From Escherichia phage vB-EcoP-XT18: a DNA stretch of 64,000 nucleotides. The translations under genes were made by a program, and so were the position numbers. Within the stretch, counting starts at the first letter, position 1. The number at the start of each line of letters is the position of its first letter. The notes under the pieces are model-generated. The model searched no databases. It saw only the letters and a program-made list of their open reading frames with translations, and was not told where the DNA came from. Of this stretch, positions 2,806 through 26,269 are shown piece by piece. Location of the stretch: sequence record OR757434.1; one strand, given 5' to 3'.

Positions 2806-3339
2806 ATGAGTTTACTAGGAAGTGTTGAACTGCATGATGTAATTGACAATGGCTATCTGGATGCGGAGCATAAGTATGTTAACGCTGCTAGTGTGGATAT
2901 CCGTATTGGTGATACTATCCTTGTTGAAGAACAGGCTGATGGCATCGTTGATATTGATGCGAAAGAGAATCTTCAGTGGAAGGAAGTAAAAATCCCTGAA
3001 GAGGGCTTGGTTATCACTCCGGGTCAGTTCTTCTTGGCTCACTCTATGGAGGAGTTTAATCTTCCAGATAACATCTCAAGTCTGTTTGTTCTGCGTTCGT
3101 CTATGGCTCGTTGTGGTTTGAACCACCTTCACGCCGGTTGGGCAGATGCAGGATTTAATAGCAGTAAGCTGACATTTGAATTCCATAACGTAACCAAGCA
3201 CCACAGTTTACGAGTTCGTGCTGGTATGCGTGTTGGTCAGATGGTGATGTTTGAGCACTCTCATGCAGGGGAACATTCCTATGCAGTGAAGGGGCGTTAT
3301 AATAACTCTGAAGGTGTAGTTGCATCTAAAGGTGTGTAA
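2806..3339 (+). CDS. dcd: dCTP deaminase
   Basis: ASVDIRIGDT, RSSMARCGL and YNNSEGVVASKG align by eye with E. coli Dcd motifs. Confidence 0.8.
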   Translation: MSLLGSVELHDVIDNGYLDAEHKYVNAASVDIRIGDTILVEEQADGIVDIDAKENLQWKEVKIPEEGLVITPGQFFLAHSMEEFNLPDNISSLFVLRSSMARCGLNHLHAGWADAGFNSSKLTFEFHNVTKHHSLRVRAGMRVGQMVMFEHSHAGEHSYAVKGRYNNSEGVVASKGV

Positions 3340-3546
3340 ATGACTGAAGAAGAGTTCCAAGAACTGAAAGGTTTGACTACCGAGGTTCAATTAAAAGCTA
3401 TGACATTTGGTCGAGCATGTCATCAATTTGATATATGCGTCGAAAGCAGTAAAGAAGCTTGTAAGAGCTATATGGATAAGAAGCACCTTGAATGGGGTAA
3501 AGCCTCTAACGATCTTTATAACTATATGAAGGGTTTAGTAAAATGA
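3340..3546 (+). CDS. hypothetical protein
   Basis: ORF in operon context. Confidence 0.4.
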   Translation: MTEEEFQELKGLTTEVQLKAMTFGRACHQFDICVESSKEACKSYMDKKHLEWGKASNDLYNYMKGLVK

Positions 3547-3740
3547 AAAAGTGGATTGTTCGTGTACATGATGATATGACTGGAGACTTGGTAGCTGTAG
3601 ATTTTATTAACACTCGAGAACACGCCCGTAGGGTCAAAAACCAATACAAGTCTACTTTTAGACTCAATAAGGTTACAATAGGAAAAGCTATTGTGAATAA
3701 CGAAGGTGCTCTTTTTGCCAACAGCAAGGTTTATTATTAA
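3543..3740 (+). CDS. small basic protein, paralog family A member 1
   Basis: shares W..V...TR.EAR..KK...VYY pattern with 3740-3949, 3959-4159 and 6501-6710. Confidence 0.45.
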   Translation: MKKWIVRVHDDMTGDLVAVDFINTREHARRVKNQYKSTFRLNKVTIGKAIVNNEGALFANSKVYY

Positions 3741-3949
3741 TGAGACCAATCACTATGAGACAGTTTTGGTTAGCAAAGATTAAGTGGGCATCAGGTGGTA
3801 TGACTATGACTGCACTTCCTACTCGTCAACAGGCTCGAGATTTTAAAAAGACTATGCTTACTGGTGACGTGGTCAATAGTATCAGTATCCATAAGGCCAA
3901 GGAGTATTCTTCTGGTCGTGTTTATATCAGCGGAAAGGTACATTACTAA
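3740..3949 (+). CDS. small basic protein, paralog family A member 2
   Basis: paralog pattern, ends VHY. Confidence 0.45.
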   Translation: MRPITMRQFWLAKIKWASGGMTMTALPTRQQARDFKKTMLTGDVVNSISIHKAKEYSSGRVYISGKVHY

Positions 3950-3958
3950 TGAAAAAAG

Positions 3959-4159
3959 ATGTGGGCGATTCGTGTTGTTTGGGATCTTGATCAACACACG
4001 AGAAAAGATAGCATCAAATTGTTTGACACTCGCAAAGAGGCTCGTATTGCTAAGAAACAGTTGAAGACTCTGGGCACAATAGTAAAAAGCGCTGATATAC
4101 ATCGCTGGTACGAAGACCCTAACTCGGGTTCTTTTATGTCTAAAGTAATTTATTACTGA
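3959..4159 (+). CDS. small basic protein, paralog family A member 3
   Basis: paralog pattern, ends VIYY. Confidence 0.45.
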   Translation: MWAIRVVWDLDQHTRKDSIKLFDTRKEARIAKKQLKTLGTIVKSADIHRWYEDPNSGSFMSKVIYY

Positions 4160-4183
4160 TTGGTAGTAGATATGGTAACTCTC

Positions 4184-4192
4184 AAATGTATA
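4184..4192 (+). promoter_or_regulatory. AAATGTATA, variant of the recurring TAATGTATA putative phage-sigma promoter motif
   Basis: motif about 40 nt upstream of the 4232 start. Confidence 0.3.
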
Positions 4193-4231
4193 TAGAGTAC
4201 AATAAGAATTTGTATTTTACAGGAGAGAGTT

Positions 4232-4558
4232 ATGTTAGATTTGAGTAAAGTGGCCCCGCCCACTGAAGAGATTACAAAATCCAAGGTGATGCAACAGTTT
4301 TATCATCGTGATATGCTTGGTCGCTTTATCAAGAATCGTGATGTTGTTGCTTGGTCTATTGGTAATCAAGGATATCTGTTGAAGGTTCTTCAGGTTACAG
4401 GTTCAACTGCTAAGCGAGTTAAGGTGTATGACCCTGAAATGGGGCGTTCTAAGTCAGTAGACCCGCAGAACTGCATCGTAATTACCCAGCAGGTGATAGC
4501 AAATCTAGAAAGAAATGTAGCAAACTCTACTGAGTTAGAAGGAGAAGACCCTAAGTGA
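4232..4558 (+). CDS. hypothetical protein
   Basis: ORF with GGAG-type RBS. Confidence 0.45.
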   Translation: MLDLSKVAPPTEEITKSKVMQQFYHRDMLGRFIKNRDVVAWSIGNQGYLLKVLQVTGSTAKRVKVYDPEMGRSKSVDPQNCIVITQQVIANLERNVANSTELEGEDPK

Positions 4559-5049
4559 TTCCAAAGGAATTGGAAGGGAAGATTGATGTAACAGAGGATG
4601 GTAGAGTATTTACTATAAAAAGTGGAAGGTTTTTAACCCTCCACACTAATGGTGCCTATTACAGAGTTACTATTTACTTTCCTGAAGGATTAAAGAATTT
4701 CTATGTCCACAGGCTGGTTGCTAGTAAGTACATACCGAACCCTGATAATCTTCCATGTGTCAACCATAAGGATGGCAATAAACTTAACAATCATAAAGAT
4801 AATCTTGAATGGTGTACCCACCGAGAAAACTCTCAACATGCATCATCATTAGGTCTGATGGTACAGAGGTTTGGAGAAGACAATCCGCAGTCTAAACTTA
4901 CTCTAGAAGATGTAGAGTACTGTAGGAGAGTTTATATCCCTCGAGATAAAGAGTTTGGAGGCTCTGCCCTTGCAAGACGTTTTGGTGTCTCTCAGCAAGT
5001 GATATCAAAAGTTCTACTTAATCAAACTTGGAGGGAATATAATGCATAA
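4555..5049 (+). CDS. HNH homing endonuclease with C-terminal HTH
   Basis: VNHKDGNKLNNHKDNLEWCTHRENSQH; paralog of 41312-41824. Confidence 0.8.
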   Translation: MIPKELEGKIDVTEDGRVFTIKSGRFLTLHTNGAYYRVTIYFPEGLKNFYVHRLVASKYIPNPDNLPCVNHKDGNKLNNHKDNLEWCTHRENSQHASSLGLMVQRFGEDNPQSKLTLEDVEYCRRVYIPRDKEFGGSALARRFGVSQQVISKVLLNQTWREYNA

Positions 5050-5605
5050 GAATGTTTTTGATTTACCTGAGATTGGTCGTGCCGAATATAATATGTTAGA
5101 CCGATCAGAGCTTTCAATCTCTCGCCTTGAAACAATGCAGGGTATGATTAGTGGAAACAGCCTAGAACACATCCTGAGCTGCTTACAAGCTAACATAGAA
5201 CTCTTGCATATCAAAGCTAAAAACTACCATTGGAACGTCTCTGGTGCAGGATTTCAGGGTGTTCATGGTATGTTTGATGAGCTGGAAGATTACGCACGAC
5301 AAGTAGGAGATCGTATTGCTGAACGTATGCGTTACCACTGTGTTAAAGTGGACGCCACAGCAGCCAATTATCTCTCCCATGCTTGGTTCTCAGAGGGTAA
5401 TGCTGACCTAGATATGGACGGTATGCTCTCTGATATGTGCATGACCTTGATGTGTATTATTGAGAAGATGGATGAGTTTGATGGTGATTTAGCCACTTAT
5501 CCAGTTGATCAGAGTATGCTTCAAGAAATTAATGAAGGTCTTGGCAAGTATTGCTACTTCGTCAAGAGCAACATGTCCCACTCAAGTGGCGATGTGTCTT
5601 ACTAA
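5042..5605 (+). CDS. Dps/ferritin-like protein
   Basis: KNYHWNVSGAGFQGVHGMFDELEDYARQVGDRIAER resembles the Dps core HWN..G..F..H..F.E....D.IAER. Confidence 0.6.
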   Translation: MHKNVFDLPEIGRAEYNMLDRSELSISRLETMQGMISGNSLEHILSCLQANIELLHIKAKNYHWNVSGAGFQGVHGMFDELEDYARQVGDRIAERMRYHCVKVDATAANYLSHAWFSEGNADLDMDGMLSDMCMTLMCIIEKMDEFDGDLATYPVDQSMLQEINEGLGKYCYFVKSNMSHSSGDVSY

Positions 5606-5666
5606 AAACCTCCGCCCTGTCTCCTAACCCGAGGTGGGGCGAACTTATTTATAAGGATATAGATAT

Positions 5667-5846
5667 ATGTTATCAGCAATCGTATGGGGTATTTGGGCTG
5701 TCTTTATTGGTGGTGGTATCTATTGGGCTTCTGGCAAGCTTATTGAAGAAACTCCTGACAAGAAAGGTGAGATTCAAACAGCATCAACCATCATGGTTGT
5801 CGTAGCTGTTGTTATCCCATTCCTGCTTCACCTCCTGACTGCATAA
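5667..5846 (+). CDS. small membrane protein (59 aa, below the ORF-track cutoff)
   Basis: ATG with AAGGA RBS; two hydrophobic segments; the overlapping track ORF 5551-5805 is in another frame and less plausible. Confidence 0.4.
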   Translation: MLSAIVWGIWAVFIGGGIYWASGKLIEETPDKKGEIQTASTIMVVVAVVIPFLLHLLTA

Positions 5847-5855
5847 GGGTTTGAT

Positions 5856-6041
5856 ATGATTTCACTGATTGTGTGGGCCGTGTGGTCGTTAATAGTTGGT
5901 ACTGTTATATATAAAGCTCGAAATTTAGCAATTAAAGAAAACCCAGCAGAAGAGGATGTTAAAGCTATCAAGCTAGGCAGTGTTGTTCTGGTACATTTTG
6001 CTATAACACTACCTCTTGTTATTATTCTTTGTATGCTATAA
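5856..6041 (+). CDS. small membrane protein
   Basis: two hydrophobic segments; similar to 5667-5846. Confidence 0.4.
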   Translation: MISLIVWAVWSLIVGTVIYKARNLAIKENPAEEDVKAIKLGSVVLVHFAITLPLVIILCML

Positions 6042-6231
6042 GGAAACCAAAGAGTGAAACTAAACCTACCTGAAGAATTACAAGCACATGCCATTATCGT
6101 TAGTGGCTGTGTGATGGGTCTTGGTCAAACAAAGAAGATTGCTCATGACTTAGCAAAAGGTCAGTATAAATCTTTTATTGTTGTTCCTGCTACCCAACGT
6201 CATATCAACCTGTTTATTAACAAGGAATAGA

Positions 6232-6504
6232 ATGTCTAAAGTGATTAAGTTTTATAGCGATCAGTGTGCTCCATGTAAAGCAATGGCTCCTACCTTTGAG
6301 AAGGTTGTTAAGGAGTTCGATGTAGAAGTAGAAGAGATTAACATCCTTGAAGGTGATGGTCGTGAACAAGCTGTTAAGTATGGTGTAAGAAGCATCCCTG
6401 CTTTCGTTGTACCTGACCGTAATAGTGGTGCACACTATAGTCTCTCTGGTATGCAGACCGAAGCAAACCTGAAAGCATTCTTAACTACTGCCCTAGGTGT
6501 TTGA
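6232..6504 (+). CDS. thioredoxin-like protein
   Basis: CAPC active-site motif in thioredoxin-fold context; ATG at 6232 has an RBS, track start 6178 is probably too far upstream. Confidence 0.65.
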   Translation: MSKVIKFYSDQCAPCKAMAPTFEKVVKEFDVEVEEINILEGDGREQAVKYGVRSIPAFVVPDRNSGAHYSLSGMQTEANLKAFLTTALGV

Positions 6505-6710
6505 TTATGAAAAAATATTGGACGGTGGTATATTACCTCTACCAAGACCCGGCTATACCTGTTACAGAGCACTTTGCTACTCGTAAAGATGCTCGCCGTT
6601 TTAAGAAGGCTCTTAAGATGTCTCCAAAGATTTATAGTAAAGTAAGCTTACATAAATCAACATTGTCAGAGAAGGGAACCTTAGTGGTTTGTTATGTAAA
6701 AGAATATTAA
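6501..6710 (+). CDS. small basic protein, paralog family A member 4
   Basis: TRKDARRFKKAL...VKEY pattern. Confidence 0.45.
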   Translation: MIMKKYWTVVYYLYQDPAIPVTEHFATRKDARRFKKALKMSPKIYSKVSLHKSTLSEKGTLVVCYVKEY

Positions 6711-6725
6711 TAAGGAAATTCACGG

Positions 6726-7217
6726 ATGAATGATATTGATCCATCAATAAAAGAAGCTCTTGATTATGACCCTTTGACTGGAGATTTCCGATGGGTTAAA
6801 ACTTATGGAAAAGGGCGCAAAGGGTCTATAGCTGGTTCTATAAATACCAACGGGTATTTGAGAATCGTTTATAAAGGTGTTAGGTATTATGCTCATCGAC
6901 TTGCTTACTGGTGGGACACTGGATTGCTTCCTGAAGAAGTGGACCATGTAGACCGCAACAGACTAAATAACAAAAGAGAGAACCTTAGAGGGACTACTAG
7001 GTCAGGGAATGGACTCAACAAAATAGCCCAAAGTAACAACTTATCAACCGGAGTGATTGGAGTAACTCTTCATAGAAGGAAAAGTGGCTCTATTGCTTAC
7101 CGGGCGGTATTCAAATCTAAGCACATAGGACTCTTCTCAACTATAGAAGAAGCCTCTAAAGCATATAATAAAGTCAAGGAGACTTATATAAATGACAATC
7201 AAAGCTTCACTAATTGA
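6726..7217 (+). CDS. HNH homing endonuclease
   Basis: VDHVDRNRLNNKRENLR HNH core. Confidence 0.75.
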   Translation: MNDIDPSIKEALDYDPLTGDFRWVKTYGKGRKGSIAGSINTNGYLRIVYKGVRYYAHRLAYWWDTGLLPEEVDHVDRNRLNNKRENLRGTTRSGNGLNKIAQSNNLSTGVIGVTLHRRKSGSIAYRAVFKSKHIGLFSTIEEASKAYNKVKETYINDNQSFTN

Positions 7218-7839
7218 TAACTTCGGTTCCGACCTTACTGTGGTCAATGCTGCTCGTGTGACTATGGGGGTAGAAAGAGAGGAGTTGAAAGAAAGTGATA
7301 CTCGGCTTATTAACTTCCTAGCTCGAGAGCGACACGTAAGCCCTTTTCGCCACCCACAAGCTAGCTTCAGATGCGAAGCCCCTATAGCAATTGCACGTCA
7401 GCTACAGAAGCATCAAGTTGGTTTTTCTTGGAATGAGATGAGTCGTAGATATAAAGATGGAGCAGTGGATATTTTTATACCTAAAGAAATCTTCTCTCGC
7501 CCCGATGATCTACATTCGGGTTCTGGAACACTCCTTGAAGGAGATGAAGAGGTAAAGGCTTTAGCTTTGTTTAACTCTGCATATGAGGCATCTCTTGCTA
7601 GTTATGATGAATTAATTAAGTTCGTAGCTCCTGAACAGGCTAGATTTGTTTTACCTCAAGGTATGGTAACTACTTGGTACTGGACTGGTTCTTTGTATGG
7701 CTGGTTTGAGTTGTGTCGTCAGCGACTATCCTCCCATGCTCAGTATGAAGTTCGAGTGTTTGCTCAATCTCTGGATGAAGAGATGGCTAAACTCTACCCA
7801 ATCTCGTGGGCAGCTCTGAAGAAAACTTTGGAGAGTTAA
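7192..7839 (+). CDS. thyX: FAD-dependent thymidylate synthase (ThyX-like) with variant active-site motif
   Basis: by-eye alignment to ThyX (VNAARVTMG, SHAQYE); canonical RHR-x7-S appears as KHQ-x8-S. Confidence 0.7.
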   Translation: MTIKASLIDNFGSDLTVVNAARVTMGVEREELKESDTRLINFLARERHVSPFRHPQASFRCEAPIAIARQLQKHQVGFSWNEMSRRYKDGAVDIFIPKEIFSRPDDLHSGSGTLLEGDEEVKALALFNSAYEASLASYDELIKFVAPEQARFVLPQGMVTTWYWTGSLYGWFELCRQRLSSHAQYEVRVFAQSLDEEMAKLYPISWAALKKTLES

Positions 7840-8024: not shown

Positions 8025-8224
8025 AAACATTATGGACTCTTGACTGTCAAGATGATGACGGAGAGCGTTGGACTTGGAAATATTTCCTAGGGAAACCAAC
8101 ACCCGAGAACCCTGCTTTGGATTGTGCTTCATATGAAGATGCTAAGAAGCTGGTAAATGGAGAAAAGGTTTGGTCTCCGGATAATGAAGTTCAGTACTTT
8201 TTAACAGAACGGAAATTTTCATAA
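8021..8224 (+). CDS. hypothetical protein
   Basis: ORF, translationally coupled. Confidence 0.4.
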   Translation: MKTLWTLDCQDDDGERWTWKYFLGKPTPENPALDCASYEDAKKLVNGEKVWSPDNEVQYFLTERKFS

Positions 8225-8547
8225 TGATTGACGGTAATACATTTAGGACTTCAAATGGAAGTGAAATAAGTCCCGCTGAAGTGATTAATCGGCACAGAAG
8301 GCAATTGATCATCCATTCCTATTTGTATTACTGGTTGGATGACCCTATCTGGTCTGATGATAAATGGCAACAAGTTGCTAACGATTTGGTTGAGTTGCAA
8401 GCCTTGTATCCAGAGCCTACCGGAGTCTTTGACAATGAGTTCAAAGATTGGGATGGTTCTACAGGGATGCATCTCCCACATAACGAAGCTGTTGCTTGTA
8501 TGGCGACAGCTGTTTACAGACTTCATAAAGAGGTTAACTTCGCATGA
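8224..8547 (+). CDS. hypothetical protein
   Basis: ORF. Confidence 0.45.
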   Translation: MIDGNTFRTSNGSEISPAEVINRHRRQLIIHSYLYYWLDDPIWSDDKWQQVANDLVELQALYPEPTGVFDNEFKDWDGSTGMHLPHNEAVACMATAVYRLHKEVNFA

Positions 8548-9716: not shown

Positions 9717-10040
9717 ATGGCAGACCATGTAGGAAAGAGAGATTATGCACAAGAAAGACGTACCGCCATCGCAAGGGGTGAAACGGGAATTGGTAGCAAG
9801 AGCGGAGATGCTCAGCGCCACCGTGCACGTCGCATCGTTGAAAAGCGCGATGGAAAAGCTGCTGTCAGAGGTAAAGACGTTGGACACAAGCGAGCCATCA
9901 AGTCAGGAGGCTCTAATGCGTCAAGCAACTTACGTGTTGAAACAGTCAGCGGAAATCGTTCAGCTGGCGGCAAAAGTGGAGATCGAGCTGGGAAGGCAGC
10001 TGGCGCTGCTAAGCGAAAAGGAGCTTTAAGCTCCTCGTAA
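9717..10040 (+). CDS. basic Gly/Lys/Arg-rich protein, possibly nucleic-acid binding
   Basis: AAGGAG RBS 6 nt before the ATG; an alternative frame 9745-10029 is also open. Confidence 0.45.
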   Translation: MADHVGKRDYAQERRTAIARGETGIGSKSGDAQRHRARRIVEKRDGKAAVRGKDVGHKRAIKSGGSNASSNLRVETVSGNRSAGGKSGDRAGKAAGAAKRKGALSSS

Positions 10041-10108: not shown

Positions 10109-10357
10109 ATGTCTATTGTAAAAACTGTAACTATTATTGATGTAATGACTGTCCGTCTGGTTAAGTGGAAATTCACCAACAATCATGGCATTGCTAATCT
10201 CATTGCAAACCAGATTGGTCATAACCCAAAAACAGCTCGTACTAACGTAATCCTCCGTGGTGCTGATGGGAAGTTCATTTCTTATAAGAATAAAGATGTA
10301 GAGAAAGAATTCCGTGTTGCAGTAGAAAACCTCATCCCATTCCCTAAAGGAGTTTAA
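10109..10357 (+). CDS. hypothetical protein, tandem paralog 1
   Basis: shares KTART.V.LR...GKFISY....PFPKG with 10359-10634. Confidence 0.5.
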   Translation: MSIVKTVTIIDVMTVRLVKWKFTNNHGIANLIANQIGHNPKTARTNVILRGADGKFISYKNKDVEKEFRVAVENLIPFPKGV

Positions 10358-10358
10358 T

Positions 10359-10634
10359 ATGAATAAATTAGCTATGGTTCAGATTCGAGACATATACCCT
10401 AACCATCCGGAGAAAACTTGGTCTTATCTGTTGACTGAAAGCAAGACTATTGACACATATCTTGCAGGGGTTGACACTATCCCAACCAGTATCACATTGC
10501 TCCCTCACAAAACAGCCAGAACCCATGTGATGTTACGTGACAGCAAAGGTAAGTTTATCTCTTATCGAGATGCTCGAATCAATAGCGAAATTAAATCTGC
10601 TATGGAATCTTTAACGCCATTCCCAAAAGGTTGA
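10359..10634 (+). CDS. hypothetical protein, tandem paralog 2
   Basis: paralog of 10109-10357. Confidence 0.5.
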   Translation: MNKLAMVQIRDIYPNHPEKTWSYLLTESKTIDTYLAGVDTIPTSITLLPHKTARTHVMLRDSKGKFISYRDARINSEIKSAMESLTPFPKG

Positions 10635-15601: not shown

Positions 15602-15867
15602 AAGTTATTGTTTTAAGTTAAGTTTTCTTTTGATTTTAATAGAGAATCAAAGTCCTAGGAGTCCTCAACCTAAATCAAGGATTTCCTCAATTCTCTATTT
15701 TTATCTCGCAGGTGTCTCCTGCCCTTCGGTACTTGCAAGGGTTACGATGATTGCCCAATATACAAGCCTGCAATAGCTTTACTAGCTATACAATATATAC
15801 ATTACTAGTGTGTTATATCTACTACCAAAGATACTTATATTATATAGTACCCTTATCGGTATAAGCG

Positions 15868-26222: not shown

Positions 26223-26260
26223 AACGTCTCCTTTTATAAATAAAAATGTCCTACCCCCTA

Positions 26261-26269
26261 TATACATTA
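26261..26269 (-). promoter_or_regulatory. TAATGTATA, putative phage-sigma-dependent late promoter
   Basis: minus strand reads CTATAATGTATATAG about 35 nt upstream of the 26222 ATG. Confidence 0.45.

Follow-up and report, generated by a model that had tools for sequence, protein, structure and literature searches.

Four small basic paralogs of PHROG 4939 among the middle genes of a Kuravirus coliphage: a fast-evolving family that may bind nucleic acid

We analyzed a 64,000-nt stretch of the genome of Escherichia phage vB-EcoP-XT18 (OR757434.1), referred to below as the window, with respect to four small plus-strand genes whose basic products, here called paralogs A to D, resemble one another. 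The phage is a Kuravirus (phiEco32-like) coliphage. Positions 3000-7300 are 99.5% identical to Escherichia phage vB-EcoP-XT73 and match 98 records, nearly all of them Escherichia or Shigella phages of the phiEco32 group (Kuravirus, Gordonclarkvirinae). The window and phiEco32 share a gene order that runs from primase/helicase through an exonuclease subunit, the gp73 nucleotidyltransferase and dCTP deaminase (DCD) to three small genes, followed by gp68, a Dps-like protein, thioredoxin, ThyX and PhoH. The three small genes of phiEco32, gp71, gp70 and gp69, are each annotated as "hypothetical protein". The block has been assigned to the middle genes, with functions in replication and nucleotide metabolism (PMC9965538; PMC8948821), in agreement with the original prediction from the sequence, which had placed the four genes in a replication module.

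Three of the genes form a tandem array behind DCD (2806-3339, +), the conserved upstream anchor of the array. Paralog A (3543-3740, +; 65 aa, isoelectric point (pI) 10.0) is the orthologue of phiEco32 gp71, paralog B (3740-3949, +; pI 10.6) that of gp70, and paralog C (3959-4159, +; pI 9.75) that of gp69. Between DCD and A lies a 68-aa open reading frame (ORF; 3340-3546, +) that matches phrog_2347, a family of unknown function (E = 1.5e-30); NJ01 and SU10 share this ORF, which phiEco32 lacks. Paralog D (6507-6710, +; 67 aa, pI 9.8) stands apart from the array. It follows the phage thioredoxin gene (6235-6504, +; Pfam Thioredoxin, E = 2.7e-13), which anchors it upstream, and has an HNH endonuclease gene and ThyX downstream. 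Each paralog contains 12-14 Lys and Arg residues against 3-8 Asp and Glu, and the pI range of 9.8-10.6 bears out the earlier description of the proteins as basic.

The boundaries of these genes needed some revision. The ORF of D opens at TTG 6501, and ATG 6507 lies 2 nt past the thioredoxin stop codon; judged from the sequence, ATG 6507 is most likely the true start, which shortens the originally predicted gene (6501-6710) accordingly. Paralog B is 69 aa long if ATG 3740 is used and 64 aa if ATG 3755 is used. Stop and start codons are shared as ATGA between the upstream ORF 3340-3546 and A, and as TAATG between A and B. Such an overlap also joins B to C in NJ01 and phiEco32, where C is a 69-aa product that begins MKKMW. 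DNA alignment with these two phages located the ancestral TAATG-coupled start of C at 3949-3958 (+) in the window, together with a run of six adenines (3952-3957) where both relatives have five. The ancestral ATG is thereby out of frame, so C in the window can start only at 3959, 9 nt after B; it loses the first residues MKK and is 66 aa long instead of the 69 aa seen in relatives. The sixth adenine could be genuine variation or an error in sequencing the homopolymer. Thus, of the three consecutive and translationally coupled genes proposed earlier, the tandem arrangement and the A/B overlap hold, whereas B and C are separated in this genome.

Several lines of evidence show that the four proteins are related. 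In a MAFFT alignment they are about 25% identical (25-29% to A) and share an invariant Trp in strand 1, the motif T-R-x-x-A-R-x-x-K at the start of the helix and a C-terminal Tyr. Smith-Waterman scores compared with those of 1,000 shuffles of one partner gave z values from 4.5 (A/C) to 9.5 (B/C); no shuffle reached the observed score in five of the six pairs, and 2 of 1,000 did so for A/C. The alignments thus score better than shuffled controls, the opposite of the outcome named earlier as a refutation. All four match PHROG 4939, a family of unknown function, from profile positions 1-4 to 67 of 67 (E = 1e-26 for A, 6.8e-28 for B, 3.1e-26 for C and 2.8e-24 for D, which is aligned from its residue 3). 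The PHROG 4939 signature (W, T-R-x-x-A-R-x-x-K and terminal Y in about 65 aa) appeared as invariant or nearly invariant columns in four alignments. The pattern originally described as W..V...TR.EAR..KK...V.....VYY therefore keeps its W and TR..AR..K, and its "VYY" reduces to the near-invariant terminal Tyr. No match to Pfam or NCBIfam was found for the four proteins, and a search of all six-frame ORFs of the window with hidden Markov models (HMMs) built from 4 and 29 sequences found no fifth member. On this alignment and profile evidence, the four proteins are genuine paralogs that have diverged within a catalogued family, to which phiEco32 gp69, gp70 and gp71 and their orthologues in Kuravirus, Suseptimavirus and Nieuwekanaalvirus also belong; the database entry carries no function.

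The family is narrowly distributed. A profile search that covered every one of 1.84 billion cluster representatives gave just 29 at E <= 1e-3. All 29 diverse relatives match PHROG 4939 over its full length, and phrog_4939 was the only hit when they were searched against Pfam, NCBIfam and PHROGs. The representatives are 47-82 aa long with a single matched stretch, except for one protein of 2163 aa in which the last hairpin alone matched, eight times; we considered it as a multidomain relative and judged it a repeat artefact, and no fused or multidomain relatives were found among the matches of this search. Word-indexed searches of 5.8 billion proteins returned 89 and 47 matches; none has a name other than "hypothetical", and the contigs that carry them reach about 91 kb. 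The family is confined to phiEco32-like phages and their relatives infecting Aeromonas and Proteus; among the latter, Aeromonas phage LAh_9 (gp94) encodes a diverged member with W...TRKEAR retained, and Proteus phage P59 (gp063) gives a weak match of this kind. Around DCD and ThyX of Salmonella phage 7-11 and Cronobacter phage GAP52, no member could be detected. Near-identical proteins (98-100%) are already deposited as hypothetical, for example from XT73, XT18 and NJ01, and the literature searched did not describe the paralogy, the core/accessory split or the synteny of PHROG 4939 genes.

The copies are unequally conserved. We counted them by tblastn against 50,697 phage records, of which about 98 belong to this phage group. 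Paralog B was found in 98 records and C in 92 at >= 80% coverage, with identities of 42% to 100%, while A was found in 64 and D in 39. Because B and C occur in nearly all of these records, they are the core pair across the group, and A and D are optional accessory copies. The retention of four copies, as first proposed, is therefore not general: phiEco32 has three only (gp71, gp70 and gp69), D is absent from phiEco32 and SU10, and EcoN5 lacks A, its members being B, C and D. In Suseptimavirus the three copies correspond clearly, as orthologues and in position, to B, C and D. Among distant metagenomic relatives orthology becomes hard to assign, which suggests that copies are born and lost there.

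At every locus with enough context, members occupied one of two sites. The first is a tandem array of two to four genes immediately 3' of DCD, which the arrays follow at every locus examined; at one locus (L018) up to four tandem copies follow it, the first of them short and weakly matching. The second is a lone gene immediately 5' of ThyX, right after thioredoxin in most loci. The order thioredoxin, member, ThyX recurs in EcoN5, in Suseptimavirus UKE3 and in a 71-kb contig with four members (L016), whereas at another locus (L007) the member is immediately 5' of ThyX yet four ORFs downstream of thioredoxin.

To describe selection on the paralogs, we estimated nonsynonymous (dN) and synonymous (dS) divergence by the Nei-Gojobori method against phiEco32, EcoN5 and UKE3, a crude measure that we applied to non-saturated dS only. 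For assignable orthologues of A, B and C, dN/dS was 0.15-0.40, rising to 0.55 for best matches at more distant loci. B covered that whole range, and A gave 0.30 against phiEco32 gp71, to which it is 80% identical. D yielded no usable ratio, its dS being near zero against EcoN5 and saturated in the other comparisons. The flanking enzymes and the gp68-like protein gave 0.00-0.22, mostly <= 0.10. Amino-acid identity between the window and UKE3 was 93% for DCD, 90% for the gp68-like protein, 84% for the Dps-like protein and 90% for PhoH, compared with 50% for B, 48% for C and 35% for D, and in dN the paralogs change 5-10 times faster than the flanking enzymes. Judged from these substitution patterns, the paralogs are constrained coding genes under purifying selection that evolve far faster than their neighbours.

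Structure prediction, also proposed earlier as a check, gave the same strand-strand-helix-strand-strand fold for B and C. With family alignments, AlphaFold2 modelled B at a predicted local distance difference test score (pLDDT) of 92.9 and a predicted TM-score (pTM) of 0.75, and C at a pLDDT of 84.2 and a pTM of 0.66, with strands at residues 2-8 and 17-22, a helix at 25-36 and strands at 42-53 and 57-65. In BFVD, the model of C matched independent models of relatives at probability 1.00; from length and identity these are probably of the A, B and D types, and beyond the family it matched only uncharacterised phage proteins. Foldseek returned no match below E = 0.3, that is, fold matches at noise level. 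The paralogs thus have a small fold that is confidently predicted and has no convincing solved relative.

Residue conservation was assessed across the 29 diverse members in the numbering of C. The conserved basic positions are 5, 25, 29, 32, 33, 36, 44, 48 (His) and 49, and position 27 is the sole conserved acidic one. Along the helix, hydrophobic residues occupy positions 28, 31, 35 and 38, and basic ones 25, 29, 32, 33 and 36. With a turn of 100 degrees per residue, the latter lie within an arc of about 100 degrees facing away from the hydrophobic ones, which implies an exposed Arg/Lys ridge with the motif T24-R25-x-x-A28-R29-x-x-K32-K33, then K36. In the strands, W2, V4, V6, V45, I47, I58, I60, V64 and Y66 alternate along the core face, and the opposite sheet face carries K5, K44, T46, H48, K63 and some aromatics. 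The family has no Cys/His metal sites, hydrophobic segments or catalytic-looking motif.

We compared the family with known small nucleic-acid-binding domains. The best profile match in PDB was to CELF1, in the region of the RNP1 strand and helix 2 of its RNA recognition motif (RRM), at E = 0.02 with a per-domain E of 8.6 or worse. The RRM was rejected, its topology being strand-helix-strand-strand-helix-strand; the paralogs lack the strand 1/helix 1 unit and the RNP2 motif, and neither the four proteins nor the 29 relatives gave a Pfam RRM match at E up to 5. A second candidate was the AP2 domain (7008-7214) of an HNH-AP2 homing endonuclease of the window, which resembles the paralogs in a hairpin strand ending in F followed by (S/D)-T-x-x-E-A in a helix. 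It too was rejected: hhalign aligns that stretch at only 2.5% probability, AP2 has three strands and then a helix, and Pfam AP2 is not matched. A homologue search with the AP2-like domain found nothing, and there was one such domain among the sequences compared. No fold match to a solved member of HU/IHF, Sso7d/Cren7 or Alba was found.

Our preferred reading, held tentatively and with somewhat less than even confidence, is that the paralogs bind a polyanionic ligand, most likely nucleic acid. We prefer it because of the conservation pattern of the basic residues. The family is a lineage-specific, rapidly diversifying group of basic alpha/beta proteins of about 65 residues that arose by tandem duplication within phiEco32-like phages and is read together with the middle block, which makes deoxynucleoside triphosphates (dNTPs) and replicates DNA. 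The overlaps of stop and start codons should yield the tandem copies in roughly equal amounts. Each protein is predicted to form a four-stranded sheet with one amphipathic helix whose exposed face bears the invariant Arg/Lys ridge, and the open sheet face would add its conserved Lys, His and aromatic residues to the binding surface. Phage or host nucleic acid may then be held through the ridge and the open face together. The diverged paralogs would represent separate specificities or a hetero-oligomer rather than extra dose, and either of these, oligomerisation being our own surmise, is more likely than the dosage role first suggested. Dosage is unlikely given copies that are only about 25% identical and, as in Suseptimavirus, separate orthologues and positions of B, C and D across genera.

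Several observations weigh against nucleic-acid binding. Pfam, PDB profiles, Foldseek and hhalign related the family to no known nucleic-acid-binding domain by either homology or fold, and the CELF match between an RRM RNP1-helix region and the paralogs is not significant and differs in topology. Genes that evolve fast and vary in copy number are more typically accessory genes for host interaction or anti-defence than core nucleic-acid-handling factors. In addition, gp69-71 were not detected by particle proteomics of SU10, which identified 34 proteins, including gp65, gp67 and gp68, in a polyethylene glycol-precipitated sample and was not targeted at gp69-71.

The same rate of change bears on the strongest rival, a doubtful but serious one, in which the paralogs are protein-binding modulators for host takeover or anti-defence. 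Their basic surface would dock on acidic surfaces of different host or phage proteins and inhibit or redirect them, and the diversification would reflect an arms race. Besides the 5-10-fold faster dN, this would fit the spread of C from 42% to 100% identity within one subfamily, the presence of A and D in some phages and their absence from others, and the turnover of arrays in distant relatives. Also in its favour, the BASEL study describes the Gordonclarkvirinae as strikingly resistant to restriction-modification by a mechanism yet to be explained (PMC11990801). However, dN/dS is well below 1, with no positive selection detected by our crude measure; one basic motif is kept by all paralogs, suggesting a shared generic ligand over different protein targets; the genes lie in the middle block, whereas most takeover and anti-restriction genes are early; and the fold matches are no better than noise. 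The T4 antitoxin Dmd and other small phage binders were also named among the nearest systems, and no functional data were found in the literature on phiEco32 gp69-71, their paralogs or Kuravirus anti-defence.

The resistance of the Gordonclarkvirinae allows a more specific and very unlikely version of nucleic-acid binding. The BASEL study found no known modification pathway or inhibitor and indicated the locus of DCD and the nucleotidyltransferase (PMC11990801). The family might be the missing factor, either coating or marking phage DNA or acting with the gp73 nucleotidyltransferase on nucleic acid, and would do so with a fold that has no solved relative. The paralogs adjoin this locus, and no tie to the phenotype was found; moreover, middle-gene products would come too late to shield incoming DNA.

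The synteny with DCD and ThyX could instead mean that the paralogs serve the adjacent dNTP-supply enzymes (DCD, thioredoxin, ThyX, the Dps-like ferritin and the gp73 nucleotidyltransferase) as accessory subunits or regulate them, for example by tethering these enzymes to one another or to the replisome. Strict synteny in diverged phages, with the array right after DCD and the single copy right before ThyX, and translational coupling with neighbouring genes would be expected of such partners. We consider this improbable. Phage gene order often mirrors the timing of expression and not physical contact. phiEco32 and SU10 lack D and still have thioredoxin and ThyX, and 7-11 and GAP52 have DCD, thioredoxin and ThyX with no member detectable there. 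The enzymes are 84-93% conserved against 35-50% for the family, which argues against tight, co-evolving interfaces.

The T4 internal proteins IPI, IPII and IPIII offer an analogy: like the paralogs, they are small, basic, variable phage proteins encoded in clusters. That the paralogs are similarly packaged and injected to protect DNA on entry is the least likely explanation of all: the family shares the small, basic, tandem and variable character of the T4 genes, but gp69-71 are missing from the SU10 particle proteins although one of 6.3 kDa was identified, the genes lie in the middle and not the late block, and no obvious N-terminal targeting or cleavage motif was noticed, no dedicated search having been made. 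The group's unexplained restriction-modification resistance (PMC11990801) would also suit such proteins.

Whichever reading is right, four "hypothetical proteins" can now be annotated as one family with two core and two optional members. Should the family prove to bind nucleic acid, or to cause the restriction resistance of these coliphages, which are used therapeutically, it would matter more; B and C, being universal, tiny and easy to purify, would then be good first targets.

Transcription of the array was considered from the promoter motif of the phage sigma factor of phiEco32, gp36-sigma, as quoted in PMC4281155. A pattern search located a candidate promoter, AAATGTATATA, at 4184-4194 (+), a 10/11 match within the 72 nt that separate paralog C from the gp68-like gene. 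The motif occurs without mismatch at 15794-15804 (-) and 26259-26269 (-). With this putative promoter after C, A-B-C probably end one transcription segment. The match is only a hint, because the 64 kb contain four matches and 9 of 100 shuffles also reach four, that is, no excess over chance.

The genes upstream of the array showed features of their own. In EcoN5 (locus L012, 7001-8048), DCD is only 59% identical to that of the window, whereas its flanking genes are 98-100% identical, and an HNH endonuclease gene abuts it; from the sequences, this looks like an allele replacement linked to a homing endonuclease. The gp73-like nucleotidyltransferase (1378-2796, +) has a match to the poly(A) polymerase head domain that falls short of the Pfam cutoff and, by eye, a long low-complexity C-terminal half. 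Its homologue on the L016 contig (3539-4759) gave a faint match to Pfam Gad2 (anti-Gabija). The gp73-like gene has been flagged together with DCD regarding restriction resistance (PMC11990801).

Two HNH_3 endonuclease genes, at 4555-5049 (+) and 6726-7217 (+), match Pfam at E = 7e-9 and 1e-10, respectively, and are insertions relative to phiEco32. The first lies between the gp68-like and Dps-like genes, and the second, which carries the AP2-like domain at its C terminus, lies between D and ThyX. A tandem pair of genes for proteins of about 60 aa (5667-5846 and 5856-6041, +) encodes two hydrophobic segments in each product, the two being 33% identical (E = 2e-10). The protein from 5856-6041 is 100% identical to that of Suseptimavirus UKE3 with a dS of 0.02, compared with dS >1 in the flanking genes, which suggests a recent exchange.

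Further downstream, a second tandem paralog pair (10109-10357 and 10359-10634, +) is 56% identical over the C-terminal 41 residues (BLASTP, E = 9e-17) and shares the motif KTART.V.LR...GKFISY...PFPKG; neither member matches Pfam. The gene at 8224-8547 (+) encodes a stand-alone 107-aa domain Ia of NAD-dependent DNA ligase (PF22745, E = 2.7e-35) without the catalytic domains, and its phiEco32 counterpart, gp62, is annotated "NAD-dependent DNA ligase". Finally, the translation of a 107-aa ORF at 9717-10040 (+) seems, by eye, very basic, disordered and rich in Gly, Ser, Ala, Arg and Lys; this ORF overlaps a second ORF (9745-10029) in another frame, and either may be the gene.

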